Assembly (NCBI GenBank): GCA_902798595.1
Contig: CADBXE010000003.1
Coordinates: 10,792-74,791, forward strand
Reading direction: 5' to 3'
DNA: 64,000 nt
DNA from: an uncultured Erysipelotrichaceae bacterium
Lineage (GTDB): Bacteria > Bacillota_I > Bacilli_A > RFN20 > CAG-826
The notes beneath the pieces were generated by a model. The model saw nothing but the letters and a program-made list of their open reading frames with translations, made no database searches and was not told the origin of the DNA. The translations under genes were made by a program, and so were the position numbers. Positions 1,066 through 27,986 of this stretch are shown piece by piece. Numbering within the stretch: position 1 is the stretch's first letter; the number at the start of each line of letters is the position of its first letter.

Positions 1066-2319
1066 TTACAATTCAATTCTTTCTGGAAATGCTTCTTTTC
1101 GCATAATACCCCACATCTTATCAATATAAGAAAGGGTATAGAAGTTTTCGTAGTAGTGGTAATAGAAGGCTCCTTTAAGTGTCATAGTGTAAACACCATC
1201 TTTTTCTTTAATATGGCCAAATAACTTAGCAATCCATAATTCAAAGCCATACATCTTCTTAAGCGGGATCCCAAAGAACCTTTCAAAGTCACGCTTATCC
1301 ACTTTCGTGGAATAAGCTGTCCAGAATAAGTAATAAATCATCCTTTGTCTTAATGTGAATCTAATAGTAAGAGATGTCGCTAGTTTAGAATCATTAATTC
1401 TTTTAATGTATTCCTGCACATTAAAGGTATTAATCTTAAATTGATCTTTTAATAACGTAGTAGCGCTGCAACCAAAGCCTAAGAAGTTGTCTCTAGTCAT
1501 TGATGAGTACTTAGCTTCTTTAACACTAGAGAATGTCCAAATAGAATTACGGTCATAGCCTTTTTCTAAACAATAATTGGTAATTTGATCTAACAACTTT
1601 CTCTTTTGCTTTTTAGGCATCGATTTTACTTCACTAGTGGTGAACGTGAAATCGATAAATGGGTAAATAGCGACGTGATTCGCACCTACACTAAAGGCGA
1701 TATCGATATCACTCTTTAAGTCTTCGTATGTTTGATTTGGTAACGCAAAGATAAAGTCCATACTGACTGTTTCAAAAGGTACTTTATTTAACGCTTCTTT
1801 TAACGCTTCTGGATTAACGGTCTTTCTTCCTAAAATGCTTTGATATTTATTTTGGAATGATTGGATGCCAATACTGATTTTAGTGATACCCGCTTCTTTA
1901 AGCATTAATAGTGTTTCTTCATTAACGTTATCAGGATGTAATTCTAAGCCTATACCTTCAGTAATGATGAAGTGTTCATTAACAGCGGTAATAATATCTT
2001 TCAAATAAGAAGCCGCTAAAGCGGGAGTGCCACCGCCAAAATATAAAGAAGTCACTTCTTTTTTACCTTCATATTGACTGCCTACCATATGTATTTCTTT
2101 AATCAATGCTTTGATATATTCATCGCATTGTTCTTTGTTATAGATGACCTTACAGTATGGGCAAAAATTACAAATACTCTTACAAAAAGGAATATGGATA
2201 TATAAACCTAAATTATGACATTCTTGGAATGGCAAAAACTGATCATATTCGTTTTTGAATATGAATGGTTTAGTGCTTCTAGTAAGCCACATTCTTGTTA
2301 AGTTAGTAATAAAACTCAT
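1066..2319 (-). CDS. HemN/HemW-like radical SAM protein (coproporphyrinogen-III oxidase family)
   Basis: 417-aa ORF with YIHIPFCKSICNFCPYC (CxxxCxxC cluster motif) and YFGGGTP, both typical of the HemN-like class. The substrate cannot be told from sequence. Confidence 0.8.
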   Translation of the reverse strand: MSFITNLTRMWLTRSTKPFIFKNEYDQFLPFQECHNLGLYIHIPFCKSICNFCPYCKVIYNKEQCDEYIKALIKEIHMVGSQYEGKKEVTSLYFGGGTPALAASYLKDIITAVNEHFIITEGIGLELHPDNVNEETLLMLKEAGITKISIGIQSFQNKYQSILGRKTVNPEALKEALNKVPFETVSMDFIFALPNQTYEDLKSDIDIAFSVGANHVAIYPFIDFTFTTSEVKSMPKKQKRKLLDQITNYCLEKGYDRNSIWTFSSVKEAKYSSMTRDNFLGFGCSATTLLKDQFKINTFNVQEYIKRINDSKLATSLTIRFTLRQRMIYYLFWTAYSTKVDKRDFERFFGIPLKKMYGFELWIAKLFGHIKEKDGVYTMTLKGAFYYHYYENFYTLSYIDKMWGIMRKEAFPERIEL

Positions 2320-10117: not shown

Positions 10118-10131
10118 GAGGGAATTAGAAT

Positions 10132-10251
10132 ATGAAGAAAAAACAATTCGAAAAACCAGAAGCAGAATTAATCAAGTTTGAAGATACAGATATTATTGCT
10201 ACATCTGGTCCTAATGACGGAGAAGATCCTGATAAAGAATGGGATTTCTAA
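10132..10251 (+). CDS. Micro-ORF A, 39-aa acidic peptide (candidate RiPP-type precursor)
   Basis: Hand translation: MKKKQFEKPEAELIKFEDTDIIATSGPNDGEDPDKEWDF. AGGAGGG (10116-10122, overlapping the upstream stop) lies 9 nt before the ATG. A strong terminator follows. Paralogous to micro-ORF B. Below the 60-aa cutoff of the ORF track. Confidence 0.5.
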   Translation: MKKKQFEKPEAELIKFEDTDIIATSGPNDGEDPDKEWDF

Positions 10252-10281: not shown

Positions 10282-10310
10282 AAAAGGCGGGTTTTCATCC
10301 GCCTTTTTGT
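10282..10310 (+). terminator. Rho-independent terminator after micro-ORF A
   Basis: AAAGGCGG-loop-CCGCCTTT followed by TTTTT. Confidence 0.8.
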
Positions 10311-10394
10311 TTTAACAACTATCTCACTTACTATTTTTTGATTGATTCATCAGCGTTAACAACATATCATTAATTCTTGGAAGTAAACTATAGT

Positions 10395-10535
10395 ATGAAA
10401 ACAAATTCAGAAAATAGAAAAACATTTATAAAACCAGAATTAGAAATCATCTTATTTGAAGGTGAATTAGCTACTGGTGATCTTATTATCAATTCAAGTT
10501 TTGGTAATCCAGACGGTGATGATGGGGATATCTAA
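10395..10535 (+). CDS. Micro-ORF B, 46-aa acidic peptide (paralogue of micro-ORF A)
   Basis: Hand translation: MKTNSENRKTFIKPELEIILFEGELATGDLIINSSFGNPDGDDGDI. Possible TTGATT-N17-TATCAT promoter (10342-10370) and a weak GGAAG RBS. Has its own terminator. Confidence 0.45.
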   Translation: MKTNSENRKTFIKPELEIILFEGELATGDLIINSSFGNPDGDDGDI

Positions 10536-10550
10536 TAATAGATAAATCCA

Positions 10551-10576
10551 GGTGGGGCAAGCGCTCCACCTTTTTA
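10551..10576 (+). terminator. Rho-independent terminator after micro-ORF B
   Basis: GGTGGGGC-AAGC-GCTCCACC stem followed by TTTTT. Confidence 0.8.
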
Positions 10577-10588
10577 TATGATGTGCAC

Positions 10589-13071: not shown

Positions 13072-13149
13072 AACATAGTTTTGTTTACATTTTTAATATT
13101 GATTATTATGAGTAAACCTCATATCATTTAATGCTAAGGTAAAAAACCT

Positions 13150-15708
13150 ATGAGAATAAAAAAACATATCCCAACAATAATTGCTTTAACCGCTGTTTTA
13201 ACTTTAGGCGCCAGTTTATACGTTAATTTTAAAAAAGCTCCTGTTGAAGCTGATGCCACTCAAGTAAATGAGAATTTTGCCCCATATACTTATAGTGGTA
13301 CTTATTACAGCGATCACAATATTGATTTTAATGCTGGCGATGGCATGAATGGTGCACTTAGAACAAAACTAAGAACCGAACTTAAACCAAAAGGTTTTGT
13401 AGAGTATAGCAGTGGATTATCAGACGAACTACAAGAAGCTGACGAAGATCCAAATAATACAGATAACATGGTGATGTTCTACACCCGTAACTCAATCACA
13501 AAAACTCCCGCTAGCAATGGTGGCATGGTTTGGAATAGAGAACACGTCTGGCCAAAGAATAAATCAAATGACAACTGGGGTACAACCAAAGGTGGTACAG
13601 ACATTCTTCACCTTAGACCAACATATGAGACACCAAACTCAACAAGAAGCAATCACCCATATGGTTATGCTCATAATGGCACAAAAAAGTCACACCTTAA
13701 CATGGATTATGGCTGGTTAGATGGCGATATCTTTGAACCTTTGGATTGCGTTAAAGGTGATGCCGCAAGAATCATTATGTATGTTTGGACAGTCTATGAT
13801 GGTTATTCGGGATATAATCCTTTATCAATCACTAGTGTTTTTGAAAGTTTTGACACTCTTCTTGAATGGCACACAATGGACAAGCCAGATGCCTTAGAAG
13901 GCCATAGAAATGATTATGTGCAAAACAGCACAGTACAAAAGAATAGAAATCCATTTGTTGATCATCCTGAATTAGCATGGAAGATTTTTGGTGATGCAAA
14001 TGGATTAAGCGCATCTGTTAAGAACGCCTGTATGGCAGCTTATCCAGATGGCAGTAATCCAATAGATCCAACCGGTATTACATTAAACAAAACAACTGCT
14101 TCTGTGGAAGTAGGAAAAACAACACAATTAACCGCTACATTGGAGCCATATGGTGCCTCAGGCAACATCACTTGGTCATCAAGCAATACTACTGTTGCCA
14201 CTGTTAATAACAATGGCTTAGTTACTGGTAAAGCAGTAGGTGAGTCCACAATTACTGCAACATGTGGTACCTTTAGTGCTTCTTGTGTAGTTACAGTCGC
14301 AGAAACTGTAAATATCTATGGCACATTAGAAAACCCATTAACAGTGTCTGAGGCTAGACAATTGATTGACGATGTTAACGGTGGCTACACAGCTGAAAAA
14401 ATGTACGTAAAAGGTACAGTGTCTTCTGGCTCGTACAATTCACAATATAGCAACTTTAATGATCTTTGGTTGCAAAGCGAAGATGGTGAAACCGCTAATT
14501 ATTTTGATTTATATCATGCTGAGTTAGATGACTCTGTTCCTGCTAAATACACTAATCCAACTGAATTAGAAGGCAAAGAAGTTATAGCCTATGGCTACGG
14601 CAAGAAATATAACTCTACTTATGAACTTGCTCCTCAAAACAATAACGTTAATAAGCCAGTTATTCTTTCGGTAAAAGATCCTAATCCAATTGAAAAGACC
14701 GCAAAAGAATTAATCGAAGAAGAAACTACTTCTGCAACATTAGCGTATCGGTACACTAAAGAAGGGAATGGTAGTAGTTCAGTTACTGATGCATTAACAA
14801 GAGATGTTACTGGAGTTGAGAGCGGTTCCACATCATATATAGATTGGACACATACTAATTCAACAAGCGCTATTACATACAAAGGACAAAGTGCTGGTAA
14901 CTACGATTCTATTCAAATCAGAAGTGATAAAAGTAATTCTGGTGTCGTTGTTTCTGCTAATACGAACTCTTCAAAAGTAAGTTCTGTTACAGTTGCCTGG
15001 AACACTAATACTTCCAATGGCCGCACATTGAACGTATACGGAAAGAATACCGCATATACTTCACCAACTGATTTATATGGTAATAATCAAGGTACTTTGC
15101 TTGGTACTATCGTTAAAGGTACTAGCACAAGTCTAGCCATTACTGGTGATTATCAATATATTGGACTCAGATCAAATTCTGGTGCAATGTATCTGGAAGA
15201 AATCGATATTCAATGGGGTGGTGCTAGCGCCGCTGTATTTGAATACTCTGATGTTTCGATTAGATTCACTGGCTCACTTAGCCAAGACTTATGGAATGAT
15301 TTAGATACCGAAAACCATGTTATTGAAGGTTTTGGTGTCATGATTACAGCAGTGTCTTCTTACGTAAATGGCACTAGTAAAATTAAAGAACAATATCAAT
15401 CAGCGGTTATTTCAACCGATAATCCAGATGTCACTGAAGACATAGTGAATTACTTTGTGCCTAAAGAAACTAAGGCAACACCTACCGCAAAGGGTAATGA
15501 TTATTATTGGAACTTGAAATACAACATCTCTGAAACTGACTTTAAGACAATCTATGTTGCCGCAGCGTATATTAAAACCGCCACTGAATATGTCTTCTTC
15601 AATCAAGCAAGATATTCTGTAAAAACACTAGCAGCGGATTATATCAATGAAAGAGACTATAATCCAACAACCGCTAATGGTTCATTAGCAAACTTAGCAA
15701 ATCTATAA
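13150..15708 (+). CDS. Membrane-anchored extracellular endonuclease-I family protein (paralogue 3)
   Basis: 852-aa ORF with a TM anchor. Motifs NREHVWPKN, DILHLRPT, FEPLDCVKGDAARIIMYV and NRNPFVDHPELA. Contains a Big_2-like domain (ITLNKTTASVEVGKTTQLTA..) and the shared C-terminal module ending ANGSLANLANL. Confidence 0.85.
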   Translation: MRIKKHIPTIIALTAVLTLGASLYVNFKKAPVEADATQVNENFAPYTYSGTYYSDHNIDFNAGDGMNGALRTKLRTELKPKGFVEYSSGLSDELQEADEDPNNTDNMVMFYTRNSITKTPASNGGMVWNREHVWPKNKSNDNWGTTKGGTDILHLRPTYETPNSTRSNHPYGYAHNGTKKSHLNMDYGWLDGDIFEPLDCVKGDAARIIMYVWTVYDGYSGYNPLSITSVFESFDTLLEWHTMDKPDALEGHRNDYVQNSTVQKNRNPFVDHPELAWKIFGDANGLSASVKNACMAAYPDGSNPIDPTGITLNKTTASVEVGKTTQLTATLEPYGASGNITWSSSNTTVATVNNNGLVTGKAVGESTITATCGTFSASCVVTVAETVNIYGTLENPLTVSEARQLIDDVNGGYTAEKMYVKGTVSSGSYNSQYSNFNDLWLQSEDGETANYFDLYHAELDDSVPAKYTNPTELEGKEVIAYGYGKKYNSTYELAPQNNNVNKPVILSVKDPNPIEKTAKELIEEETTSATLAYRYTKEGNGSSSVTDALTRDVTGVESGSTSYIDWTHTNSTSAITYKGQSAGNYDSIQIRSDKSNSGVVVSANTNSSKVSSVTVAWNTNTSNGRTLNVYGKNTAYTSPTDLYGNNQGTLLGTIVKGTSTSLAITGDYQYIGLRSNSGAMYLEEIDIQWGGASAAVFEYSDVSIRFTGSLSQDLWNDLDTENHVIEGFGVMITAVSSYVNGTSKIKEQYQSAVISTDNPDVTEDIVNYFVPKETKATPTAKGNDYYWNLKYNISETDFKTIYVAAAYIKTATEYVFFNQARYSVKTLAADYINERDYNPTTANGSLANLANL

Positions 15709-15827: not shown

Positions 15828-17708
15828 ATGATTAAAACAAGAAAAATGAAGACTTATTATCTAAAAATTAGAGAGAAATTTATAGAGCCGCTTAGGAACG
15901 GCATAAAGAAACATGAGTATCGTTTAGCTTCTCCAGAAAGACGCTCTATTAAGATTGGAGACAATCTTGTTTTGATATCAAACCAGGATAAGAAAAACTA
16001 TGTAAGAACAACCGTAACGGGAATTAATATTTATAAATCGTGGCGGGAGGCATTAGAAAACTATTGGGAAGAAGATTTCTCTGGGCTTTTTGATACTCTT
16101 GATATTGCTCTTACTGAATGCAATAAATTCTATTCTCGAGATGATGTTGATGAATACGGGATTATTGTATTTGATGTAAAGCCTGCGACCATCGATTACG
16201 GCAGCGCTTCTGTTCTACTGGATACAAACGTCATCGTTAGAAGAGAAAGTTACAACAACAGTTCTTCCGAAATAGCTAAATTATTTAATTACTTCAATAA
16301 AAAGAAAATCAGGACATTTGTTCATCAGAAAAGCAAAAACGAATTGGAAAAATACGCAAATCCAAATTACAAGAAATCTATCATAGATAAGTTAAATGCA
16401 TACGAAACCTTCCCAAACTATGTAGTTCGTCTTGATAATACTTTCAACGATATTGTTTCTCACTTTTCAAATGATGATAATAGTCAAGTTGATAATGCCC
16501 TTTTAGCGGAAGTATATTGTGGGAACGTGCAACTACTTTTGACGGATGACCGTCTAATGCTTTTAAAAGCAGAACAATTGTATATTAGAGAAAAAGTATT
16601 ATCTTCTATTGAACTTCTTGAAAAATACAAGGAACTCGATCCTAAAAATGTAAAGTATGACATTTTGAATGTTACACTCAAATCTTTTGCAGAAGTTGAC
16701 TTAGACGATTCATTTTTTGATACCTTGAAATATGATTACAACTTCGGTAATAACGAATTTGTTAATTGGTATAAGAGAAAGTCTGAAAAAAATGAAATGG
16801 CATACACTTTTTATGATGGCGACATCCTTAAAGGATTCTTATATTTAAAAGTTGAGGACAACGAAACGTATGACGACATTACTCCTAAGATGCCTAGGAG
16901 AAAAAGATTGAAGGTCGGAACGTTTAAAATCAATAGCACTGGCTTCAGACTTGGTGAACGCTTTTTCAAAATTATTTTTGATAACGCTCTTCTTCTAAAA
17001 GTCGATGAAATCTATGTGACACTTTTTGAAAACAAACGCAAAGAAATTGCAAAACTTAAATCTGATTTCGAAAAGTGGGGCTTTACCAAATTTGGATATA
17101 AAACAAATGGCGAAGCTGTTCTGGTGAAAGAAATAGCAAATCCTGTAATTGGTGATAATCCAAAACAATATTTTCCTGCTTTTAAGCCATCTGCTAAAAA
17201 ACTGTTTTTGCCGATTTTGCCTGAATACCATACAAGCCTATTTCCAGATAGCCATTTGAGAAATGAAAATTTAAGTTTCTTAAAAAGCAATCGAGCTCAT
17301 CAATATGCTTTGGAAAAGATATATCTGACAGGAGCAAACACAGATGGCATAAAACCAGGTGATGTTGTACTTATTTATCGCATTGGTGAAGATATGTTTA
17401 AAAGGTATTCCTCCACTCTCACCGGAGCTGCAATTGTTCAAGAGATTATTAAAACTAAGAATGTTGATGAATGCATAGATATATGTAGCAATCGTTCTAT
17501 CTTCAGTGAAAAAGAGATTAGAACGTTTTATGATAAATATCCAACAGTAGTTAAATTGTTATATAGAACTTCATTTGATCATAAAATTCTTCTAGATTAT
17601 TTATGGCAAAAGGGCATAATCGAACAAAACTGTGGCCCAAGATCATTTCAGCCTTTAAGCAACGACTATTTCAGTTTATTATATAAAAAAGGAACTGGAG
17701 AAGAGTGA
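15828..17708 (+). CDS. Multidomain ASCH - PIN - GNAT-like - ASCH-like protein
   Basis: 626-aa ORF. aa ~8-118 are ASCH-like (IEPLRNGIKKHEYRL..GDNLVL). aa ~128-255 are PIN-like (VLLDTNVIV ... LLLTDDRLM). aa ~280-436 are GNAT-like (..LKVGTFKINSTGFRLGERFFK..WGF). aa ~455-615 form a second ASCH/PUA-like region resembling the downstream 125-aa protein. Domain calls come from motif reading only. Confidence 0.55.
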   Translation: MIKTRKMKTYYLKIREKFIEPLRNGIKKHEYRLASPERRSIKIGDNLVLISNQDKKNYVRTTVTGINIYKSWREALENYWEEDFSGLFDTLDIALTECNKFYSRDDVDEYGIIVFDVKPATIDYGSASVLLDTNVIVRRESYNNSSSEIAKLFNYFNKKKIRTFVHQKSKNELEKYANPNYKKSIIDKLNAYETFPNYVVRLDNTFNDIVSHFSNDDNSQVDNALLAEVYCGNVQLLLTDDRLMLLKAEQLYIREKVLSSIELLEKYKELDPKNVKYDILNVTLKSFAEVDLDDSFFDTLKYDYNFGNNEFVNWYKRKSEKNEMAYTFYDGDILKGFLYLKVEDNETYDDITPKMPRRKRLKVGTFKINSTGFRLGERFFKIIFDNALLLKVDEIYVTLFENKRKEIAKLKSDFEKWGFTKFGYKTNGEAVLVKEIANPVIGDNPKQYFPAFKPSAKKLFLPILPEYHTSLFPDSHLRNENLSFLKSNRAHQYALEKIYLTGANTDGIKPGDVVLIYRIGEDMFKRYSSTLTGAAIVQEIIKTKNVDECIDICSNRSIFSEKEIRTFYDKYPTVVKLLYRTSFDHKILLDYLWQKGIIEQNCGPRSFQPLSNDYFSLLYKKGTGEE

Positions 17709-17709
17709 G

Positions 17710-18087
17710 ATGAAACGAAAAATATTGATTTCGGTTAATCCTGAGCATGTTGAAAACATTATTTCTGGCATAAAGAAGTATGAATATCGTCGCCATGTTG
17801 CCAAAAAGGATATTTCATCTATCATCATCTACGAAACAACACCGATTAAGCGTGTAGTCGCGGAAGCGGAAATCGAAGCCATTCTTTCTTATACCCCCGA
17901 TGAACTTTGGGAAATAACAAAGAATGAATCGGGTATTACAAGAGCTTTCTTTGATAAATATTTCAAAGGCAAAGAAATTGCACATGCTTACCGTATTGGC
18001 AAAGTTAAAGTCTTTAAAGAAAAGAAACTGCTTCAAGACTTTGGCGTTAGATGTGCACCTCAATCATTCGTCTACATCAATTACTAA
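17710..18087 (+). CDS. ASCH domain protein
   Basis: 125-aa ORF starting 1 nt after the upstream TGA. ISVNPEHVENIISGIKKYEYRR ... YETTPIKRVVAEAEI is typical of small ASCH (PUA-like) proteins. Confidence 0.7.
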   Translation: MKRKILISVNPEHVENIISGIKKYEYRRHVAKKDISSIIIYETTPIKRVVAEAEIEAILSYTPDELWEITKNESGITRAFFDKYFKGKEIAHAYRIGKVKVFKEKKLLQDFGVRCAPQSFVYINY

Positions 18088-18107: not shown

Positions 18108-18131
18108 GGTGGAGTTTTACTCCACTTTTTA
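18108..18131 (+). terminator. Rho-independent terminator
   Basis: GGTGGAG-TTTTA-CTCCAC followed by TTTTT. Confidence 0.75.
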
Positions 18132-18145
18132 TATATAATAAGCAC

Positions 18146-18865
18146 ATGGTTAACTTTAAAATTGAAATCGCTAATACAGTATTTGAAATTAATGCTTTTA
18201 ATGAGTCCACTAAAAGGTATTGTGGGGATTTTTTAAGCGATAAAGAATCTGATTATGTTATTGATATGACTAAGGATGATTTAGAAAACGAAAAGCATAT
18301 CAGTGAAGATGGTAAAGTGTACGCGAATGAAGAGATATCAGCATTATATCGTAAGATAGCCAATATCTTTATAGAAAAGGATATTATGATCGCTCACGGT
18401 TCTTCTTTTAAAGTTGATAACTGTGGTTTTCTAGTGACTGCGAGAAGTGGAGTGGGTAAATCCACCCATGTTAATTTATTAAGAGAGTTATTAGGTAATG
18501 AATTTAGTTATATTAATGACGATAAGCCGTTATTAGAAGTTAATGATAATAACTGTATGCTTTATTCTTCACCATGGAATGGTAAAGAAAGAAGAGGTAA
18601 TAATACCTATGCTCCTTTAAAGGCTATTATCTTCCTTAATAGGGGTACTTCTAATACATATAGAAAGATTGAAAATAATAGTGATATCTATTTTAGATTA
18701 ATGACTCAAGTCTATTTACCATTAGATAAATCTAAAAGAGAAAAAGCTTTAACATTGATTGATATATTATTAAAGAGAATTAACTTCTATGAGATTAATG
18801 TTAATACTGATATATCAAGTGCGGTTATGACTTATGAAAGGATTATTAAAAATGAAATTAAATGA
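18146..18865 (+). CDS. HPr-kinase-like (HprK-related) P-loop kinase
   Basis: 239-aa ORF. HGSSFKVDNCGFLVTARSGVGKSTH resembles the HprK/P C-terminal domain Walker-A region. No RBS; TATAAT lies 6 nt upstream of the ATG. Confidence 0.55.
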   Translation: MVNFKIEIANTVFEINAFNESTKRYCGDFLSDKESDYVIDMTKDDLENEKHISEDGKVYANEEISALYRKIANIFIEKDIMIAHGSSFKVDNCGFLVTARSGVGKSTHVNLLRELLGNEFSYINDDKPLLEVNDNNCMLYSSPWNGKERRGNNTYAPLKAIIFLNRGTSNTYRKIENNSDIYFRLMTQVYLPLDKSKREKALTLIDILLKRINFYEINVNTDISSAVMTYERIIKNEIK

Positions 18866-19124
18866 AAACTTTTTAATCCATAGTTCTGATAATGGTGAAA
18901 TCTTAATCCCAGTGGGAGAAGAAACTAAAAAGTTCCATGGTGTGGTTAAACTTAATAACACCGGTAGTGAAATCGTTCACTTATTAGAAAATAACGATAT
19001 GTCATTAGAGGATCTCTTTGAACACTTCTATAAGAGCTGTCCTAATGATGATAAAGAAGTAATTAAACAAGGAGTTAGTGAGTTTATTAAAAAACTCTAT
19101 GAAATCAATGCCATCGTTGAATAA
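18834..19124 (+). CDS. PqqD-family peptide chaperone (RiPP recognition element)
   Basis: 90-96 aa (ATG at 18834 or 18852, both overlapping the kinase gene). ..LNNTGSEIVHLLENNDMSLEDLFEHFYK...VSEFIKKLYEINAI follows the PqqD/RRE pattern. Confidence 0.6.
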   Translation: MKGLLKMKLNENFLIHSSDNGEILIPVGEETKKFHGVVKLNNTGSEIVHLLENNDMSLEDLFEHFYKSCPNDDKEVIKQGVSEFIKKLYEINAIVE

Positions 19125-19539
19125 GTTTGAAGACGTTCTTAATAAAGAAGGAGAACTAATATTCACTAATGTTGGTTACTCTATGTATCCGCTCATCAAA
19201 CAAAGAGAGGATGTTTTAAGAATTGTTAAAAGCGATAACTATAAGAAAGGCGATATTGTTTTATATAAGTCTGAAATAGACCACTACGTGTTACATAGAA
19301 TCTTAAAGATTAAGAAAGATGTAGTTATCCTTGCGGGTGACTATAACTACTTTAAAGACAAACCTATTACAAAAGATAAGATTTTAGGCGTTTTAAGCAC
19401 AATTACTAAGAAAGATGGTAAAATAATCGACCTATCTAAGGATAAAAGGGCTAGAAGGTTCTTTTATACGAATTTCTTTTATATCAAAGCATTCTTCCAA
19501 ATGGTTGGGAAGGTATTACATTTAAGAAAAGTAAAATAA
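19078..19539 (+). CDS. S24/S26-family (signal-peptidase-I-like) serine peptidase
   Basis: ~145-153 aa. The likely ATG is at 19099 or 19108, overlapping the PqqD stop. Contains GYSMYPLI (GxSMxP catalytic Ser motif) and KGDIVLY..HRI. Confidence 0.55.
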   Translation: MSLLKNSMKSMPSLNKFEDVLNKEGELIFTNVGYSMYPLIKQREDVLRIVKSDNYKKGDIVLYKSEIDHYVLHRILKIKKDVVILAGDYNYFKDKPITKDKILGVLSTITKKDGKIIDLSKDKRARRFFYTNFFYIKAFFQMVGKVLHLRKVK

Positions 19540-19611
19540 TACTTCATCGGCAAAAAACAAAAAACTTTGTATAACTATTGTAAATCTTGCCGAATATAGT
19601 ATCATTAATGT

Positions 19612-20514
19612 ATGAATAAATTCATAACGGTCAAAGAAGCGGCAAATAAATGGAATGTTTCGGAAAGAAGCGTTCGTAATTACTGTGTCTTAGGAAGAGT
19701 TCCTGATGCAGTTTTTGAAAATGGATGCTGGCTCATACCAGAAACCGCTAAAAAGCCAATTAGGCTTAACGAAAAAGAAAACAAAAACCATCTTCTTGAG
19801 AGATTAAGGGAAGAAAAGAAGCACCAAATCAGTGGTGGAATATATCACAAACTTCAAATCGATTTAACTTATAACTCAAATCATATTGAAGGTAGCGAAT
19901 TAACGCACGATCAAACTAGATATATTTTCGAAACAAGAACCATTGGCTTAGAAAGCACAAATACATCAGTTAAAGTTGATGATGTGATTGAAACCATCAA
20001 TCACTTTTCTGCAATTGATAGAGTTATTGATTTTGCTAACTATGAACTTAGCGAATCATTTATCAAAGAACTGCATAAAATTTTAAAAACTGGGACATCT
20101 GATTCAAGACTTTCTTGGTTTGCGGTTGGCGAATATAAAAAAAGAGCGAATGAAGTAGGTGGCATAGCTACGACATCTCCTCAACAAGTTAATGATGAAA
20201 TGAAAAAACTCCTCAGCGATTATAATCAAAAGGACAAACATTCTTTTGAAGAAATAGTGGAATTTCATGTTAAATTTGAGAGAATCCATCCTTTCCAAGA
20301 TGGCAATGGTAGAGTTGGACGCCTCATTATTCTTAAAGAGTGTTTAAAAAACAACATCGTCCCTTTTGTTATTCTTGATAATAAAAAAATGTTTTACTAT
20401 CGCGGTCTCAAGAATTGGAACCAAGAACGCGGATGGTTATTAGATACTTGCTTGGATGGGCAAAATACAGTAAAAGCGTACCTAGATTATTTTGGAATAG
20501 TGTATCGTAATTAA
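19612..20514 (+). CDS. Fic-family protein with N-terminal HTH
   Basis: 300-aa ORF. An excisionase/MerR-like HTH (ITVKEAANKWNVSERSVRNYC) is followed by the canonical Fic motif HPFQDGNGRVGR. Confidence 0.9.
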   Translation: MNKFITVKEAANKWNVSERSVRNYCVLGRVPDAVFENGCWLIPETAKKPIRLNEKENKNHLLERLREEKKHQISGGIYHKLQIDLTYNSNHIEGSELTHDQTRYIFETRTIGLESTNTSVKVDDVIETINHFSAIDRVIDFANYELSESFIKELHKILKTGTSDSRLSWFAVGEYKKRANEVGGIATTSPQQVNDEMKKLLSDYNQKDKHSFEEIVEFHVKFERIHPFQDGNGRVGRLIILKECLKNNIVPFVILDNKKMFYYRGLKNWNQERGWLLDTCLDGQNTVKAYLDYFGIVYRN

Positions 20515-20524
20515 GGAAGCAAAG

Positions 20525-22165
20525 ATGAGAAACAAAGAAACACTAAGTTTTATTAACAAAAACATTAAAGGGAGTAAGAAGAAAGTCTTTATCCTTTCTT
20601 TAATTCAAACCTTATTAGGTGTTTTAACTGTTGGTTTCTCTTTCATGCTGAAGTTTGTTATCAATGCGATTGAAGATAAGAACAATGAATTATTAATTAG
20701 ATACGTCATTATCATTGCCTCAATTGCAGTCTTGCTTATCGCTTTACAAATCTTCTATCGCTTATATTACGAAGTTAGTTATATCGATATTGAAAATAGA
20801 TTAAAAAATAACTTATTTAAAACAATCTTGAATAAAGATTATCAAGATGTTAAAAACACTCATGATGAAGAATGGATCCATAGATTAACAAGTGATACCG
20901 CAGTAGTGGCATCCTCAATCCTATCAATCTTACCTTCATTATGTAGAATGGTTATCCAATTAGTTTTAGCCTTAGCCCTTATTATCTATTTATTCCCAGC
21001 GTTCGGTTTATCTTTATTGCCATTTATCGCTTTAGTAATTCTAATCACTTACTTTATGCGCAAACGTTTAAAAGCGTATCATCATTTAGCCCAAGAAAAA
21101 GATGGTAAAGCTAAAGTGTTCCTTTCCGAATCTCTTCAAGGTTTAGCAATTGTTCATAGCTTTGTTAAAGAAGATGTCTTTTCTAAAAAGAATGAACAAA
21201 ACTTAGAGGAATATAAGAAAGCGAGATTAAAAAGAAATACATTTAATGTCTTATGCTCTATTGGCTTTATAGTGGTCTACTATACTTTCTATATCTTAGC
21301 CATTATCTTCTGTGGACAAAAGATTATTAATGGTGCGATGACCATTGGCTTCTTAAGCGCGATTGTCGCGTTACTTTCACAGTTAACAGGTCCACTTGGA
21401 AATATCACCTCTATCATTCCTAAGTACTATAGTTTATTAGCGAGTGGTGAACGTTTAAGAATGGAAAATAGCGAGGACGTGGATTATTTATCTAAGAGTG
21501 AAATTGATAATTTCTATAACAATGGATTTAAAAAACTATCCATTAATAAGGTTTGTTATTCCTATTTAGATAAATATGGTAATAAGGTCCAAGCCCTTAA
21601 TAACTTCTCGCTTGTTATTAATAAAAACGAAAAGGTTTTAATTAAAGGCCATTCTGGTGGTGGCAAGTCCACTTTATTTAAACTAATACTTTCTTTATTA
21701 ACCCCAGAAAGTGGTGAAATTAAGATTAACGAACAACCACTTAATAAGAAATATGAAAAACTCTTCGCTTATGTCCCTCAAGATAACTTATTAATGGAGG
21801 GCACAATTAAGGAAGTAGTGACACTATTCGATAATGAACCGAATAATGAACTATTTAACAAAGCTTTAGAAATCAGTGATGCCTCTAACTTTGTTAATGC
21901 CTTAGTTAATAAAGAAGAAACATACCTTAATGAAAAAGGTAGTGGTCTTTCCTTAGGGGAAATGGAAAGAATCGCTATTGCTAGAGCCATTTACAGTGGT
22001 TCTCCAATCTTGCTATTAGATGAATGTTCAGCGTCCCTTGATGCCTCTAGTGAAAAGACAGTGATGTCTAATATTTTAAATATGAACAATAAGACCATTA
22101 TCTTAATTTCACATCATAAATATGATGAGAAGTTATTCGATAAGGTTATCGATCTTGGTGAATAA
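20525..22165 (+). CDS. ABC exporter, fused permease/ATPase
   Basis: 546-aa ORF. N-terminal 6-TM exporter domain, Walker A GHSGGGKST, signature LSLGEMERIAIARA, Walker B ILLLDE. Starts 10 nt after the fic stop. Confidence 0.85.
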   Translation: MRNKETLSFINKNIKGSKKKVFILSLIQTLLGVLTVGFSFMLKFVINAIEDKNNELLIRYVIIIASIAVLLIALQIFYRLYYEVSYIDIENRLKNNLFKTILNKDYQDVKNTHDEEWIHRLTSDTAVVASSILSILPSLCRMVIQLVLALALIIYLFPAFGLSLLPFIALVILITYFMRKRLKAYHHLAQEKDGKAKVFLSESLQGLAIVHSFVKEDVFSKKNEQNLEEYKKARLKRNTFNVLCSIGFIVVYYTFYILAIIFCGQKIINGAMTIGFLSAIVALLSQLTGPLGNITSIIPKYYSLLASGERLRMENSEDVDYLSKSEIDNFYNNGFKKLSINKVCYSYLDKYGNKVQALNNFSLVINKNEKVLIKGHSGGGKSTLFKLILSLLTPESGEIKINEQPLNKKYEKLFAYVPQDNLLMEGTIKEVVTLFDNEPNNELFNKALEISDASNFVNALVNKEETYLNEKGSGLSLGEMERIAIARAIYSGSPILLLDECSASLDASSEKTVMSNILNMNNKTIILISHHKYDEKLFDKVIDLGE

Positions 22166-22166
22166 G

Positions 22167-23285
22167 ATGAATAAAGAGAATTACGCGAATAACATTAATA
22201 AGTATGTGCGACTTATCGCAGCGTATCTAAATAATAAGATACTTAACGAAAGTATTGATGATAATCTTCTCTCTTTTTGTATCAAGATGTCCAAACATCA
22301 TTCCTTAACTGCGTTACTTTATAAGGCTATCGTAGAAACGCATAGTAAAGTAAATCCAGAGTTATTAAAGAAGCTAGAGCAGCATTATTACGCTAACTTA
22401 AGAAAGCACGCTTTATTTGAACAAGAAAGAAATGATTTGTTTAAGTATTTAGATGATAACAAGATTGATTATTTACCTTTAAAAGGCTTAATTGTTAAAG
22501 ACTATTATCCTGATCCATTTACTAGAGAATTTGCGGATAACGATATTCTTTTTAAGGGCAAAGATGAAGTGATAAAGAAGTTCTTCGTCGATAAAGACTA
22601 TGAGGTTGAACTATATAAAAAGAGCAATCATGATGTCTATTTAAAGAAGCCCTTCTATAACTTTGAAATGCACCGCGAATTATTCATGGAAAGAGAAGAC
22701 TTAACCGAGTTTGTTAAGTACTTTAAAAACTATTTAGATAAAGCCCCTATTAAAAAGAAGAAAGAACATTATTTAAGCAATGAAGATTTCTATATCTATT
22801 TCACCGCTCATTCATATAAACACTATAGTGCCTCTGGATGTGGAATTAGAACGCTCGTGGATTATTATTTATACTTAAGAAATAACAAACTAGATTTTAA
22901 ATACATCAATAAAGAATTAGAGAAGTTAAATCTCTTAGATTTCTCTAATCAAATGATCAATCTTTCAAATAAAGTATTTAATGAAGAAACATTAGATAAT
23001 GATGAATTAGAAACACTGCTATTTATCGCTAGCAGTGGTACTTATGGTACTTTAGAACACAGTGTCACTAAAGGCATTAAGAAAAAAGGAAAGTTTGGTT
23101 ATACGATGTCTCGCATCTTTCCACCTTATTCCTTCTATAAAACCACTTATCCTTGGGCGTATCACGTTGTCATCCTTATTCCAGTTGCGTGGACAATCCG
23201 CTTATTCAAAGTTTTGTTTACGAACCCTAAAAAAGCGGTGACAGAACTAAAGATGATTAAAGATTCTAAAGAAGAAAAAGAATAG
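22167..23285 (+). CDS. Uncharacterised nucleotidyltransferase family protein (PF14907-like)
   Basis: 372 aa from the ATG at 22167, 1 nt after the ABC stop. YLPLKGLIVKDYYPDPFTREFADNDILF matches the LKG...Y...R..D.D pattern of this family. Confidence 0.5.
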   Translation: MNKENYANNINKYVRLIAAYLNNKILNESIDDNLLSFCIKMSKHHSLTALLYKAIVETHSKVNPELLKKLEQHYYANLRKHALFEQERNDLFKYLDDNKIDYLPLKGLIVKDYYPDPFTREFADNDILFKGKDEVIKKFFVDKDYEVELYKKSNHDVYLKKPFYNFEMHRELFMEREDLTEFVKYFKNYLDKAPIKKKKEHYLSNEDFYIYFTAHSYKHYSASGCGIRTLVDYYLYLRNNKLDFKYINKELEKLNLLDFSNQMINLSNKVFNEETLDNDELETLLFIASSGTYGTLEHSVTKGIKKKGKFGYTMSRIFPPYSFYKTTYPWAYHVVILIPVAWTIRLFKVLFTNPKKAVTELKMIKDSKEEKE

Positions 23286-23300
23286 ATAATAACTATAAAT

Positions 23301-23333
23301 ATTCACCAAATTAATACTTGGTGAATTTTTTTG
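23301..23333 (+). terminator. Rho-independent terminator
   Basis: ATTCACCAA-loop-TTGGTGAAT, a 9-bp stem followed by T7. Confidence 0.8.
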
Positions 23334-27388: not shown

Positions 27389-27677
27389 ATGATTAAAAGC
27401 TTTGCTGATAAAGAAACTGAAAAAAGTATTTAATCAGGAATTCTCTAGGAAACTACCTGAGAATATCCAAAAAGTCGCATTAAGAAAGCTAATGATGATC
27501 AATGCTGCTGAATGTCTAACTGATTTGAAAATTCCCCCAGCGAATCGATTAGAAATGCTGCTCGGAGACCGCTTTGGTCAGTGGAGCATCAGAATCAATG
27601 ATCAGTGGAGAATCGTGCTTATTCCAGTAAGCAACGGAGCGAACTATGAATGTGTAGAGATAGTGGACTATCATTAA
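27389..27677 (+). pseudogene. higB: higB (RelE/ParE-superfamily, plasmid-maintenance-killer type toxin), frameshifted in an A6 run
   Basis: The ATG at 27389 gives MIKSFADKETEKSI* (stop at 27431-27433). The rest of the toxin (VFNQEFSRKLP...PPANRLEMLLGDRFGQWSIRINDQWRIV...VEIVDYH) is in the frame of the 27402 track ORF. Deleting one A from the run at 27420-27425 joins them into a canonical ~95-aa HigB. Confidence 0.7.
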
Positions 27678-27689
27678 GGAGACAGAATT

Positions 27690-27986
27690 ATGAATCGTAT
27701 TGAAACACCAAATATTAGTGAAATTCTTCGTGAAGAATTCATGATTCCTTATCATCTATCAGCATATCGTCTCGCTAAAGAAATCAACGTCCCTATTTCT
27801 CGTATTCAGGATCTGCTTCATGATAGACGTAAGATTACTGCCGAAACATCTATTAAACTGGGCAAGTTTTTTGGCGTAAGTGAAAAATACTTTCTAAACT
27901 TACAAAATGATATTGATATTAGAGAAGCGAAGAAACTCTTTTCTAACAGTGTAAAGAAAATAATGCCTCTTATCAAAAATATATAG
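27690..27986 (+). CDS. higA: HigA-family antitoxin (XRE-type HTH)
   Basis: 98-aa ORF, 12 nt downstream of higB. ILREEFMIPYHLSAYRLAKEINVPISRIQDLLHDRRKITAETSIKLGKFFG is the typical HigA HTH. Confidence 0.85.
   Translation: MNRIETPNISEILREEFMIPYHLSAYRLAKEINVPISRIQDLLHDRRKITAETSIKLGKFFGVSEKYFLNLQNDIDIREAKKLFSNSVKKIMPLIKNI

Follow-up and report, generated by a model that had tools for sequence, protein, structure and literature searches.

A recurrent cyclase-less, lasso-like peptide cassette of gut and rumen bacteria and its candidate precursor peptides

Overview

A conserved operon, widespread in gut and rumen bacteria and apparently unstudied, most likely trims, modifies, and exports members of a very large unnamed family of short acidic peptides, whose genes often sit directly behind genes for giant surface proteins. 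The unit that recurs has five genes, encoding a predicted HprK/PEPCK-fold kinase (K), a PqqD-like peptide-binding protein (Q), a SipW/Sec11-type S26 peptidase homologue without an N-terminal membrane anchor (S), an ABC exporter (A), and a PF14907 nucleotidyltransferase (N). The example that prompted this work lies in a 64,000-nt stretch of DNA from an uncultured Erysipelotrichaceae bacterium (GCA_902798595.1, contig CADBXE010000003.1, positions 10,792 to 74,791), hereafter the window, to which all coordinates refer. No paper describing the cassette was found.

A preliminary description, made from the sequence alone, had reported six co-directional genes in this region, namely the five above and a Fic gene, and its observation is confirmed, since all six reading frames are present where it had placed them. 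Its interpretation, an exported linear peptide phosphorylated and/or nucleotidylated by an uncharacterised RiPP-like pathway, is only partly supported, for the reasons given in the following sections.

Composition of the locus

The features of the region, all on the + strand, are the following.

7586-10117 (+), giant Sec-signal surface protein (843 aa) with a signal-peptide-like N-terminus and Pfam Flg_new repeats; context and a possible functional partner.
10132-10251 (+), candidate precursor peptide A (39 aa), MKKKQFEKPEAELIKFEDTDIIATS / GPNDGEDPDKEWDF; its Shine-Dalgarno sequence AGGAGGG (10116-10122) overlaps the stop codon of the upstream giant gene, and an intrinsic terminator lies at about 10284-10313.
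10395-10535 (+), candidate precursor peptide B (46 aa from the ATG at 10395; the ORF opens at the TTG at 10377), ...KTFIKPELEIILFEGELATGDLIINSS / FGNPDGDDGDI; its leader is divergent, with a 4-residue insertion, it has no clear Shine-Dalgarno sequence and its own terminator at about 10551-10577, and it may be degenerate.
10642-15708 (+), two tandem Endonuclease_1/Big_2 secreted proteins (809 and 852 aa), which by alignment carry the same C-terminal domain as the 843-aa protein; context.
15828-18087 (+), two ASCH-domain genes (626 and 125 aa) matching the PADLOC phage-defence candidate PDC-M11A/B (469.9 and 137.1 bits); an insertion, not part of the cassette.
18108-18131 (+), hairpin plus T-run (GGTGGAG-TTTTA-CTCCAC-TTTTT at 18108-18130), terminator of the upstream unit, followed by TATAAT at 18134-18139.
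18146-18865 (+), K, HprK/PEPCK-fold P-loop kinase-like protein of the ScmC-like superfamily (239 aa; ARSGVGKSTH at residues 99-108).
18834-19124 (+), Q, PqqD-like RiPP recognition element (96 aa).
19099-19539 (+), S, S26B (SipW/Sec11-type) serine peptidase homologue with the motif GYSMYP (146 aa; the alternative GTG at 19078 gives 153 aa), without an N-terminal transmembrane segment and with a hydrophobic, basic C-terminal tail; the presumed leader peptidase.
19538-20509 (+), a 972-bp insertion with a promoter-like site (19578-19605) and an HTH-Fic gene (19612-20514; HPFQDGNGRVGR); not a core member.
20525-22165 (+), A, half-size ABC exporter (transmembrane plus nucleotide-binding domain, 546 aa) without a C39 peptidase domain.
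22167-23285 (+), N, PF14907 (NTP_transf_5) Pol-beta-fold nucleotidyltransferase with a hydrophobic C-terminal segment (372 aa; an upstream ATG at 22122 gives 387 aa).
23301-23333 (+), intrinsic terminator closing the cassette (hairpin at 23301-23326 plus a T-run).

The spacing is as the preliminary description had it. K and Q overlap by 32 nt, Q and S overlap by 26 nt from the ATG at 19099 or 47 nt from the GTG at 19078, and gaps of 72 nt, 10 nt, and 1 nt precede Fic, the exporter, and the ATG of N at 22167, respectively. The TATAAT element ends 6 nt before the start codon of K, which has no Shine-Dalgarno sequence, so that a leaderless start is possible. Co-directionality alone is not evidence of an operon here, because nearly every long ORF of the window is on the + strand; the real evidence consists of the overlaps and of the conserved gene order in distant genomes.

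Profile and structural support

Profile searches supported Q with Pfam PqqD at 30.8 bits (gathering threshold, GA, 23.4), Fic at 76 bits, A with ABC_membrane at 114.5 bits and ABC_tran at 91.6 bits, and N with NTP_transf_5 at 143.5 bits (GA 31.2). Relatives of Q score 48.6 bits and hit lasso PqqD chaperone models weakly, while A matches bacteriocin/NHLP exporter models only from their transmembrane region onward. Two assignments fall below the curated cut-offs by sequence: Hpr_kinase_C scores 18.7 bits on K (GA 33.3), and, on S, Peptidase_S24 scores 19.6 bits and TIGR02228 45.6 bits (E 6.7e-12) against a cut-off of 51.85. Both are rescued by other evidence. An AlphaFold2 (AF2) model of K (pLDDT 91) was searched against the PDB with Foldseek, and the top 50 hits are all HprK/P or PEPCK (best E 4e-5), with only HprK/P and ATP-PEPCK chains at the top, whereas the S family has invariant GxSMxP, HR, and GD(N) motifs in 38 homologues, and its profile aligns to human SEC11A/C across those motifs.

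The motifs expected of active enzymes are intact. In K, which combines a Walker A and a DD motif, residues H84, G104, K105, T107, H108, N124, D126, K127, and P128 are invariant and D125 is conserved among close relatives; in N, K106-G107, D124, and D126 (KG...DxD), plus a further His/Arg/Asp set, are invariant in 35 homologues. Nor is the kinase family without a name, since relatives carry Pfam PF27840 "ScmC", and their best NCBIfam hit is TIGR04249, the SynChlorMet cassette protein ScmC (30 bits), a computationally defined and uncharacterised family.

Recurrence of the cassette and absence of a lasso cyclase

Relatives of K were found in 573 stretches of species-representative genomes, and K has 4,843 clusters at 50% identity with E<=1e-3. 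Among the 51 best loci with at least 4.5 kb downstream of K, which span Ruminococcus, Lachnospiraceae, Oscillospiraceae, Erysipelotrichaceae, Bacteroidales, and Synergistaceae, Q accompanies K in 43, S in 37, and N in 28, and K-Q-S-A-N is the commonest order.

The preliminary description had related the set to the accessory genes of paeninodin-type lasso clusters, had noted that the Asn-synthetase-like cyclase and the B2 protease are lacking and that a serine peptidase takes the place of the leader protease, and had reasoned that constant adjacency of homologous cassettes to a cyclase/B2 pair would make this a decayed remnant. The relation to that accessory set, the lack of both lasso genes, and the position of the serine peptidase are supported: it is a RiPP-like (ribosomally synthesized, post-translationally modified peptide) cassette centred on a PqqD-type RiPP recognition element (RRE). 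No Asn-synthetase PP-loop ORF (SGGxDS) occurs anywhere in the window, and no Asn_synthase or transglutaminase was found among its size-compatible ORFs or, from precomputed Pfam annotation, within +/-10 kb. Likewise, no SGGxDS ORF lies within +/-10 kb of the 80 species-representative cassettes, and the recurrent neighbour families contain none. The cyclase-less form thus recurs widely and is not a remnant.

The Fic enzyme, counted in the preliminary description as a third phosphoryl/nucleotidyl-transfer enzyme, is not part of the cassette, which leaves two such enzymes and not three. The gene is absent from the related loci L005, L007, and L011 and from all 80 species-representative loci, it lies in an insertion defined relative to L005, L007, and L011 by a break in blastn synteny and by alignment of the junctions, it has its own promoter-like site, and it matches the PADLOC defence candidate PDC-S04 at 358 bits. 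The two ASCH genes, which separate the surface-protein and peptide genes from the cassette, are likewise absent at this position in L005, L007, and L011.

Candidate precursor peptides

The preliminary description found no precursor gene adjacent to the cassette; however, candidate precursors do exist 7.6 kb upstream, separated from it by the two nuclease genes and the inserted PDC-M11 pair. A profile HMM of the peptide family gave only two significant hits in the six-frame translation of the window, namely peptide A (E 2.6e-18, 62 bits) and peptide B (E 3.3e-12). The family comprises 5,782 sequence clusters at E<=0.01, and none of the 120 best listed has a Pfam domain or a functional name. Its members are 32-60 aa long, with a conserved N-terminal leader, (K)-x-Y/F-x-x-P-x-x-x-V/I-V/I-x-F-x-x-x-D-V/I-I-T-T-S, followed by a short (median 13 aa), Gly-rich, acidic, and hypervariable core.

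In relatives, the peptide genes abut the cassette. The leader HMM finds them in 31 of the 80 loci, often directly beside K, with six tandem copies upstream of K in locus L050, four in L037, and one 3 nt before K in L025. In L005, a 74%-identical relative, the orthologous nuclease gene is followed by a peptide gene and then by K, with the peptide gene 11 nt upstream of the K ORF. However, 49 of the 80 loci show no peptide within +/-10 kb and many peptide genes lie far from any cassette, so that the link between enzymes and substrates rests on guilt by association and not on an obligatory pairing. In the window itself, peptides and cassette are in separate transcription units. In the reverse direction, starting from the peptides, P0313 sits right after K-Q-S-A-N in three places, and P0273 is followed by a lipoprotein gene and then by a truncated K gene. 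Peptide genes also commonly start within about 30 nt of the stop codon of giant secreted-protein genes, and some cores share an ELPFVP motif with neighbouring lipoprotein C-termini.

The C-terminal part appears to be the modified core, given that loci with an inserted radical SAM/SPASM (rSAM/SPASM) maturase have Cys-containing cores in 5 of 6 cases, against 2 of 36 elsewhere (Fisher p = 1.4e-4). Of 149 cores, 58 (39%) have no Ser, Thr, or Tyr and only 5 end in Ser. The chemistry put forward in the preliminary description remains possible, but C-terminal serine phosphorylation as in paeninodin can therefore not be the general chemistry.

Proposed maturation pathway

The explanation we favor, with moderate confidence, is that the region encodes a self-contained, RRE-dependent peptide maturation and export cassette, K-Q-S-A-N, into which a defence-type Fic gene has been inserted. 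The gene content, its recurrence, the peptide family and its co-location with the cassette, the intact catalytic motifs, and the status of Fic as an insertion come directly from the analysis, whereas every chemical step, including modification, cleavage, and export, and the biological role are inferred from sequence, predicted structure, and precedent.

In this view, Q would bind the Y/FxxP part of the leader and present the peptide to K, whose gene overlaps that of Q. Then K, an active-looking HprK/PEPCK-fold kinase, would phosphorylate the peptide, most likely at the Thr-Thr-Ser of the leader/core junction, which holds the only hydroxyls conserved across the family, core residues being possible only where they exist. 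N, an active-looking Pol-beta-fold transferase, would elaborate the product. As precedents, PadeK and PsmK phosphorylate precursor peptides, and in pseudomycoidin biosynthesis PsmN, a homologue of N, is required for the addition of a hexose to a phosphoserine (PMC6993621, PMC7533575). S, viewed as a cytoplasmic or tail-anchored signal-peptidase-like Ser/His enzyme, would remove the leader next to the invariant Ser, where the residues are small (-3 Thr, -1 Ser, +1 Gly) as in a signal-peptidase site, and finally A would export the product.

Some features sit uneasily with this scheme. If S cuts after the invariant Ser, a phosphorylated Thr-Thr-Ser would leave with the leader, and K and N would then have no obvious role on the product side. 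K might also be a phosphorylase, or an ATPase with a role other than that of a kinase, as its similarity to HprK amounts to about 14% identity with TM-scores of 0.35-0.5, and S lacks the membrane topology of every characterised S26 enzyme.

Alternative readings

The leading alternative, although unlikely on present evidence, concerns the biological role and is compatible with the biochemistry proposed above. It holds that the exported peptides are neither antimicrobials nor free signals, but cognate ligands, anchors, or release factors of the giant surface proteins encoded immediately upstream of them. In about 20 independent cases the peptide gene starts between -4 and +31 nt from the stop codon of a gene for a 560-2,080-aa Sec-signal protein carrying LRR_5, Big_2, Flg_new, Endonuclease_1, or Glug domains, or none known, and the window is one such case. 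These otherwise unrelated giants share C-terminal domains of roughly 200 aa that fall into a few types, and that of the 843-aa protein is similar to those of the giant proteins preceding peptide genes in L005 and L007 (E 1e-14 to 1e-21). BspA-type LRR giants flank the cassette in 20 of 80 loci. However, this evidence is purely positional and motif-based, giant surface proteins are common in these genomes, and hitch-hiking in an operon for expression is an alternative. An AF2 model of the C-terminal domain from the window was poor (pLDDT 69) and gave no fold match. Small lipoproteins ending in ELP[FW][VIL]Pxx lie next to the cassette in at least 11 loci, and the same motif, with matching W/F and V/I variants, ends the peptide cores of the same loci in L017, L025, and L073; yet only 25 of 149 cores carry a [LTMIE]-P-x-[VILFP] motif near the C-terminus, and the clade of the window has a different tail motif (DPD), with no matching lipoprotein found.

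A more doubtful reading is that the conserved N-terminal 24-mer is the product and the variable acidic tail a discarded follower, with S cutting after the invariant Ser to create a C-terminal Ser that K would phosphorylate and N elaborate, exactly as in paeninodin and pseudomycoidin. PadeK and PsmK do act on a C-terminal Ser, the invariant Ser and the most conserved block (D-V/I-I-T-T-S) lie exactly at the junction, and many tails lack any hydroxyl. On the other hand, the tails carry clade-specific motifs (DPD, ELPFVP, TPxx) and so are not junk, the co-occurrence of Cys-containing tails with rSAM/SPASM maturases marks the tail as the modified part, and the Y/FxxP motif near the N-terminus is the classical RRE-binding leader element.

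A split lasso system, in which a cyclase and a B2 protease encoded elsewhere in the genome make a lasso peptide from these precursors while the cassette supplies the accessory functions (RRE, kinase, NTase, exporter), is improbable. The leader does resemble firmicute lasso leaders (Y/WxxPxxE..., Thr at -2, Gly at +1), with a faint hit to NF033524, the paeninodin family (E 0.49), and rumen lasso precursors look similar, for example ...TAF/GPDDPNHVDD. Against it, besides the absence of a cyclase within +/-10 kb of the 80 cassettes and from the 64-kb window, a dedicated peptidase (S) already fills the role of B2, some cores are only 8 residues long, and Asp/Glu shows no ring-forming register, as 70% of Gly1 cores have D/E at positions 7-9, against 68% at 4-6 and 69% at 10-12.

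Least likely, and already largely refuted by the recurrence of the five genes with intact catalytic motifs in many families and phyla, is a decayed paeninodin-type lasso cluster or part of an anti-phage defence island with no role in peptide maturation, because, although PDC-M11 and PDC-S04 flank and interrupt the cassette in the window, AbiEii and HepT/MNT genes occupy the same spots in L007, and a truncated K lies next to a Fic gene in loci L098 and L099, K, Q, S, and N have no PADLOC match and only 2 relatives of K were found in 2.9 million viral contigs.

Biological meaning

In the favored explanation no macrolactam (lasso) ring is made, and the cassette would work as a platform for peptide maturation, into which some relatives have inserted rSAM/SPASM maturases, with cores that then contain Cys. 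If the reading based on surface proteins is also true, the cassette would be the shared maturation machinery of a peptide-epitope-based system for surface display or shedding.

Gene content and domain assignments

The preliminary description placed six genes in one block, namely an HPr-kinase-like protein, a PqqD-like protein, an S24/S26 peptidase, a Fic enzyme, an ABC exporter and a nucleotidyltransferase, and this observation is confirmed, since all six ORFs are present as described:

18146-18865, K, the kinase-like protein (239 aa, P-loop ARSGVGKSTH)
18834-19124, Q, the PqqD-like protein (96 aa)
19078/19099-19539, S, the serine peptidase homologue (GYSMYP)
19612-20514, Fic (HPFQDGNGRVGR)
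20525-22165, A, the ABC exporter (546 aa)
22122/22167-23285, N, the nucleotidyltransferase (NTase)

K and Q overlap by 32 nt, and Q and S by 26 nt, whereas Fic is preceded by a 72-nt gap and separated from the exporter by 10 nt, and the NTase ATG at 22167 lies 1 nt after the exporter stop. Hairpins followed by T-runs bracket the block at 18108-18130 and 23301-23333. That the genes are co-directional means little here, because nearly all ORFs of at least 100 aa in the window that look real are on the + strand, and cumulative GC skew rises steadily; co-directionality is therefore not evidence for operons in this window. K and Fic both lack a Shine-Dalgarno sequence and have a -10-like hexamer (TATAAT and TATCAT, within 18134-18148 and 19600-19614, respectively) ending 6 nt before the ATG, which suggests leaderless or near-leaderless mRNAs.

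Profile searches firmly support four of the assignments: PqqD (PF05402, 30.8 bits against a Pfam gathering threshold, GA, of 23.4), Fic (76 bits), the exporter (114.5 and 91.6 bits) and PF14907, NTP_transf_5 (143.5 bits, GA 31.2). Relatives of Q also hit NF033530, the lasso PqqD chaperone, at 30 bits, which is below its cut-off of 70. In the NTase family, K106-G107, D124 and D126 are invariant in 35 homologues, in agreement with a Pol-beta-type G[GS]...DxD catalytic motif, and the two aspartates would correspond, by inference, to the D134/D136 pair shown to be essential in PsmN (PMC6993621).

The kinase and the peptidase fall below curated thresholds, and both were examined further. K scores 18.7 bits against Hpr_kinase_C (PF07475, GA 33.3), with only the P-loop region aligned, and 16.8 bits against TIGR00679 (cut-off 240), so that it does not belong to HPr kinase/phosphorylase by sequence. 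A sequence profile of K searched against PDB sequences gave only P-loop-level hits (midasin, ABCB1, PEPCK and HprK, E 0.005-0.5), and the fold assignment needed an AlphaFold2 (AF2) model, which has a pLDDT of 91. The top 50 Foldseek hits of this model in the PDB are all HprK/P or PEP carboxykinase chains, with E from 4e-5 to 2e-3 and TM 0.26-0.53. In addition, the Walker A residues G104, K105, T107 and H108, together with N124 and D126, are invariant across 43 diverse homologues, and D125 is conserved among close relatives, so that the predicted PEPCK-like P-loop kinase fold comes with Walker A and an acidic DD metal-binding motif.

S scores 19.6 bits against Peptidase_S24 and 45.6 bits (E 6.7e-12) against TIGR02228, just under its cut-off of 51.85. 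However, an alignment of 38 homologues has invariant GxSMxP, HR and GD(N) motifs, which are the Ser/His/Asp-box motifs of ER/archaeal-type (S26B) signal peptidases, and the family profile aligns to human SEC11A/C over exactly these motifs (E 0.006). As read from the sequences alone, none of the 38 aligned homologues has a hydrophobic N-terminal segment, and only a C-terminal hydrophobic, basic tail is present; the membrane anchor that would place the catalytic domain outside the cytoplasm is thus missing.

The two defining lasso enzymes were looked for and are absent. No ORF longer than 200 aa with the PP-loop motif SGGxDS of the Asn-synthetase-like macrolactam synthetase (C protein, PF00733) occurs in the window or beside the cassette in the 80 loci described below, where the only two hits are ORFs of 258 and 369 aa lying 5-8 kb away. 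Asn_synthase was likewise not found among size-compatible window ORFs or in precomputed Pfam annotation within +/-10 kb. The transglutaminase-like leader protease B2 (PF13471) is not among the Pfam hits of genes within +/-10 kb of the cassette, either in the window or in the loci L005, L007, L010 and L091 (handles with L designate the loci collected in this analysis), nor among the size-compatible window ORFs, a set that leaves out some of the small ORFs.

Relatives of the kinase and the recurring unit

The exact K protein occurs on rumen metagenome contigs, the longest being a 266.8-kb scaffold from the STEW19 assembly set, and the nearest species-representative genome is a "Bacilli bacterium" rumen metagenome-assembled genome, at 62% identity. 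K belongs to a large family, with 4,843 clusters at the 50%-identity level with E<=1e-3, of which 153 have E<=1e-30. A scan of one genome per species gave at least 573 confirmed relatives, and the best 80 of these come from Ruminococcus (including the isolate R. flavefaciens Y1), Lachnospiraceae, Oscillospiraceae, Erysipelotrichaceae and Christensenella, but also from Bacteroidales, Muribaculaceae and Synergistaceae. Conversely, only 2 relatives of K were found in a viral contig collection, and a phage origin was rejected on this basis.

The ORFs of these loci were searched with the proteins of the window and then with family HMMs. In the 51 loci with at least 4.5 kb downstream of K, Q is present in 43, S in 37 and N in 28, and K-Q-S-A-N in that order is the commonest architecture, although permutations (QNKSA, SQKA, KQSN) also occur. 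The recurrent neighbour families are BspA-type LRR surface proteins (20 loci) and radical SAM/SPASM (rSAM/SPASM) maturases (5 loci), not lasso enzymes; a further neighbour cluster seen in 15 loci turned out to be antisense ORFs overlapping Q and S, an artefact of crude gene calling. The idea that the cassette is a remnant is refuted by this recurrence, because the cyclase-less, S-containing form is the norm and its catalytic motifs are intact everywhere.

Inserted genes and other neighbours

Regarding Fic, which the preliminary description counted among the members of the cassette, it is an insertion. The protein has the Fic motif HxFx(D/E)GNGRxxR, in the form HPFQDGNGRVGR, and matches the PADLOC candidate defence gene PDC-S04 (model PDLC04836) at 358 bits. 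In the close relatives L005 and L007, whose K proteins are 73-74% identical, and in L011, S abuts the exporter with no Fic, and DNA alignment shows that window 19538-20509 has no counterpart in them. The junction carries an imperfect duplication of the S-stop/exporter-start region, and a promoter-like site lies at 19578-19605, 6 nt before the Fic ATG. A Fic gene 51% identical to that of the window also follows a K gene truncated after 155 aa in the unrelated loci L098 (6733-8083) and L099 (6704-8054); this is a second, independent association, here with a decayed cassette and in an unrelated organism, but two associations are too few to be called functional.

Just upstream of the cassette, at 15828-18087, two ASCH-domain genes (626 and 125 aa), overlapping by design, match the two-gene PADLOC phage-defence candidate PDC-M11A/B at 470 and 137 bits, respectively. 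Their position is occupied by AbiEii/DUF6088 in L007 and by a precursor peptide gene in L005, which suggests a hot spot for defence-gene insertion. K, Q, S and N match nothing in PADLOC. Both PDC systems are candidates, not validated defence systems, and their similarity concerns the inserted genes only.

Other genes of the window lie further away:

1066-2319 (-), radical SAM protein (417 aa, 59.9 bits)
3453-5132 (+), CotH-kinase-domain protein (559 aa, 73 bits)
27402-27986, a downstream pair of ORFs (91 and 98 aa), the second with a weak HTH_3 hit

The first two are about 13-17 kb upstream of the cassette, while the last pair, judged by eye, resembles a HigB/HigA-type toxin-antitoxin module.

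The candidate precursor peptides

Gene calls in relatives showed ORFs of 46-49 aa, and translating them and then scanning the window revealed two candidate precursor peptides that the preliminary description had not seen:

10132-10251, peptide A
10377/10395-10535, peptide B

They share a leader, K-x-F/Y-x-x-P-E-x-x-V/I-V/I-x-F-x-x-x-D-V/I-I-x-T-S, followed by a variable acidic tail. In the whole six-frame translation of the window only these two ORFs score with the peptide-family HMM (E 2.6e-18 and 3.3e-12; the next best is 0.08). Peptide A has a strong Shine-Dalgarno sequence (AGGAGGG) overlapping the stop codon of the upstream 843-aa gene, and its own terminator, whereas peptide B has a divergent leader, no Shine-Dalgarno sequence and its own terminator, and may be decaying.

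The leader HMM finds such genes in 31 of the 80 loci, and many are directly beside the cassette: six tandem copies lie upstream of K in L050 and four in L037, one lies 3 nt before K in L025, and others come after S in L038 and L054 or after N in L057, L064 and L091. In L005 one lies 11 nt before the K ORF, at the spot where the window has the PDC-M11 insertion. A profile search returned 5,782 clusters at E<=0.01, and none of the 120 best listed has a Pfam domain or a functional name. Of three of these clusters that were looked up, one sits right behind K-Q-S-A-N and two sit behind giant proteins, one of which is followed by a lipoprotein gene and a K fragment. Searches of the peptides against Pfam and NCBIfam gave no family, with only faint N-terminal hits to the paeninodin-family and SSH RaS-RiPP leaders.

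In 149 non-identical members, the junction between leader and core is T (139) - T (134) - S followed by G (121). Cores have a median length of 13 aa (range 8-33) and are 24% Gly, 14% Asp and 9.5% Glu, with a mean net charge of -3.1; all contain Asp or Glu, 58 contain no Ser, Thr or Tyr, and only 5 end in Ser. So the reaction known for the homologous lasso kinases, namely phosphorylation of a C-terminal Ser (PMC6993621; PMC7533575), cannot be general here, and the only hydroxyls conserved across the family are those of the Thr-Thr-Ser at the junction. Although Gly at +1 is frequent, Asp/Glu shows no positional preference, being found at positions 7-9, where lasso cores have a conserved Asp/Glu for ring closure, in 70% of cases, at 4-6 in 68% and at 10-12 in 69%, which argues against a hidden lasso-type ring. 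The possibility that K or N activates an Asp/Glu carboxylate for cyclisation was considered and dropped, because this register is flat and there is no precedent for these folds.

The tail, rather than the conserved head, appears to be the modified part. One or two rSAM/SPASM peptide maturases, whose best NCBIfam match, TIGR04463, is far below its cut-off, are inserted in the cassette variants of five loci (L029, L032 7339-8649, L038 5686-8449, L049 and L054 5181-6614), and in these loci 5 of 6 cores contain Cys (for example ECCECVIEQLE and GCSPVEDDELIKIGP), against 2 of 36 elsewhere (Fisher p = 1.4e-4).

Giant surface proteins and small lipoproteins

In about 20 independent cases the peptide gene begins between -4 and +31 nt from the stop codon of a Sec-signal protein of 560-2,080 aa. 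Examples are:

window 7586-10251 (843-aa Flg_new protein, 14-nt gap)
L005 369-2997, 3285-6867 and 7020-9944
L073 3383-9324
L094 5988-10114
L097 4788-10114

These giants have unrelated N-terminal parts (LRR_5, Big_2, Flg_new, Endonuclease_1, Glug, or no known domain) but share C-terminal domains of roughly 200 aa that fall into a few types, and the three tandem giants of the window share one type with those of L005 and L007. No Pfam family covers these domains. For the C-terminal domain of the 843-aa protein, a homologue search limited by its word index found only 2 proteins, the resulting 5-sequence AF2 model was poor (pLDDT 69), and Foldseek gave only generic Ig/FnIII-like hits at E>=0.06, from which nothing can be concluded about the fold.

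Small lipoproteins with a lipobox, a low-complexity Thr/Pro/Glu-rich linker and a C-terminal ELP[FW][VIL]Pxx motif lie next to the cassette in at least 11 loci, among which are:

L017 3198-3953
L020 9555-10004
L025 5380-5919
L035 177-629
L036 9469-9984
L061 9427-9957
L069 9638-9982
L073 9449-9955
L091 10179-10610
L097 10186-10683

In L017, L025 and L073 the peptide core of the same locus ends in the same motif, with the same W/F and V/I variant. This suggests that the exported peptides, the lipoprotein tails and the C-terminal domains of the giant proteins belong to one surface-associated system, although it is only an association, and the clade of the window has different tails (DPD motif), for which a search for a lipoprotein with a matching C-terminus found none.

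Comparison with known systems

The closest characterised systems are the firmicute lasso peptide clusters of the paeninodin and pseudomycoidin type (padeA-C-B1-B2-K-D and psmC-A-K-B1-B2-N-D). They share four of the five protein types with the cassette, namely an HprK-fold kinase (predicted, in the case of K), a PqqD-type RRE, a PF14907 nucleotidyltransferase and a half-size ABC exporter, along with a precursor leader that has an aromatic-x-x-Pro motif, Thr at -2 and usually Gly at +1. Here, however, the Asn-synthetase-like cyclase and the transglutaminase-like B2 are absent and an S26B-type serine peptidase takes their place, the cores lack the Asp/Glu ring register, and, as they rarely end in Ser, the known target of PadeK and PsmK is missing.

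The closest database concepts are the uncharacterised HprK-like/PqqD cassettes defined computationally by Haft: the SynChlorMet cassette, with ScmC (TIGR04249/PF27840), PqqD and two rSAM/SPASM proteins, and the HprK-related kinase A/B systems (TIGR04352 and TIGR04355). These also pair a small HprK-like P-loop protein with a PqqD-family protein, without a cyclase, and a subset of the cassettes found here contains rSAM/SPASM maturases, although no rSAM gene lies in the cassette of the window. Relatives of K hit ScmC best, at 24-30 bits against an equivalog cut-off of 125, and some of them (P0093, L091) carry PF27840 in precomputed Pfam annotation, but the window protein does not; PF27840 gave no match in the Pfam copy searched. 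The window protein gives no hit to ScmC at E<=0.1 and hits none of these models at E<0.05, with HprK_rel_B scoring 11.9 bits, while its relatives score 12-21 bits against the HprK-related models, whose cut-off is 200 bits. Membership in these equivalogs is therefore not supported, and the signature S26B peptidase and the present peptide family are not known to be part of those definitions.

With respect to the S26B signal peptidases (B. subtilis SipW and eukaryotic SEC11), S has the same Ser (GxSMxP), His (HR) and Asp-box (GDN) motifs, and the junction of the peptides has small residues at -1 and -3, like a signal-peptidase site. SipW is likewise a dedicated peptidase for a few specific substrates, TasA and TapA. 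On the other hand, S has no N-terminal membrane anchor or signal sequence, so that its catalytic domain should face the cytoplasm, and its presumed substrate is a hydrophilic RiPP-type leader instead of a hydrophobic signal peptide.

Full-text literature searches on these gene sets and protein families found only lasso-peptide papers that mention HPr kinase or nucleotidyltransferase genes, and no paper describing the cyclase-less cassette, its peptide family or the coupling to giant proteins, within a collection largely without subscription journals and with the name ScmC obscured by unrelated acronyms. Genome-mining work on rumen isolates lists many unexplained "RRE-containing" regions (PMC13289728), which may include this cassette.

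Proposed pathway and its significance

The interpretation given in the preliminary description is partly supported: it is right in outline, in that the cassette is RiPP-like, cyclase-less and uncharacterised, but it is wrong about Fic, incomplete about the precursors, and too close to the lasso model in its chemistry. While the gene content, its recurrence, the peptide family and the insertion of Fic come directly from the sequences, all function, including leader binding, phosphorylation, elaboration, cleavage and export, is inferred.

In the most likely mechanism, Q would bind the Y/FxxP leader and hand the peptide to K, whose gene overlaps that of Q and with which it forms the most constant pair. 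K would then phosphorylate the peptide, and N would elaborate the product, by analogy with its homologue PsmN, which is needed for hexose on a phosphoserine (PMC6993621). S, which has no N-terminal anchor and should therefore act on the cytoplasmic side, would remove the leader at the small-residue junction, and the exporter, which lacks a C39 peptidase domain, would secrete the product. The step we trust least is where K and N act, because, if S cuts after the invariant Ser, a modified Thr-Thr-Ser would leave with the leader; alternatives are that the cut falls before TTS, that the head is the product, or that K has a non-kinase role.

A more far-reaching possibility, which we consider unlikely although it is not excluded, is that the cassette matures a new class of linear, leader-dependent peptides acting as cognate partners of giant surface proteins, each giant adhesin or nuclease gene carrying its own translationally coupled peptide gene. 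After leader removal by a cytoplasmic signal-peptidase-like enzyme, modification by K and N, and export, the peptide would display a short C-terminal epitope, for example ELPFVP, which is also found at the C-terminus of membrane lipoproteins encoded beside the cassette. This epitope would be bound by the conserved C-terminal domain of the giant protein, giving a previously unknown non-covalent anchoring or release system for the cell surface of gut Firmicutes.

We regard the cassette as a probable RRE-dependent RiPP pathway that is abundant, unstudied and experimentally tractable, with an odd leader peptidase and a puzzling link to surface proteins. If this reading is right, one of the most abundant RRE-containing gene sets of gut and rumen Firmicutes is not a broken lasso cluster but would be its own pathway, with thousands of kinase clusters and about 5,800 peptide clusters. 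It would also have a type of leader peptidase (S26B, facing the cytoplasm) that has not, to our knowledge, been described for RiPPs, and the HprK-like K and the PF14907 N would have substrates that cannot be the ones known from lasso peptides. For annotation, the Fic and ASCH genes in such loci are inserted defence candidates and should not be counted as biosynthetic genes. The analysis provides a defined substrate family, a predicted cleavage site and compact reference loci, such as L073, and it links small peptides to giant surface proteins and lipoproteins, which could bear on how these bacteria build or remodel their surface in the gut.
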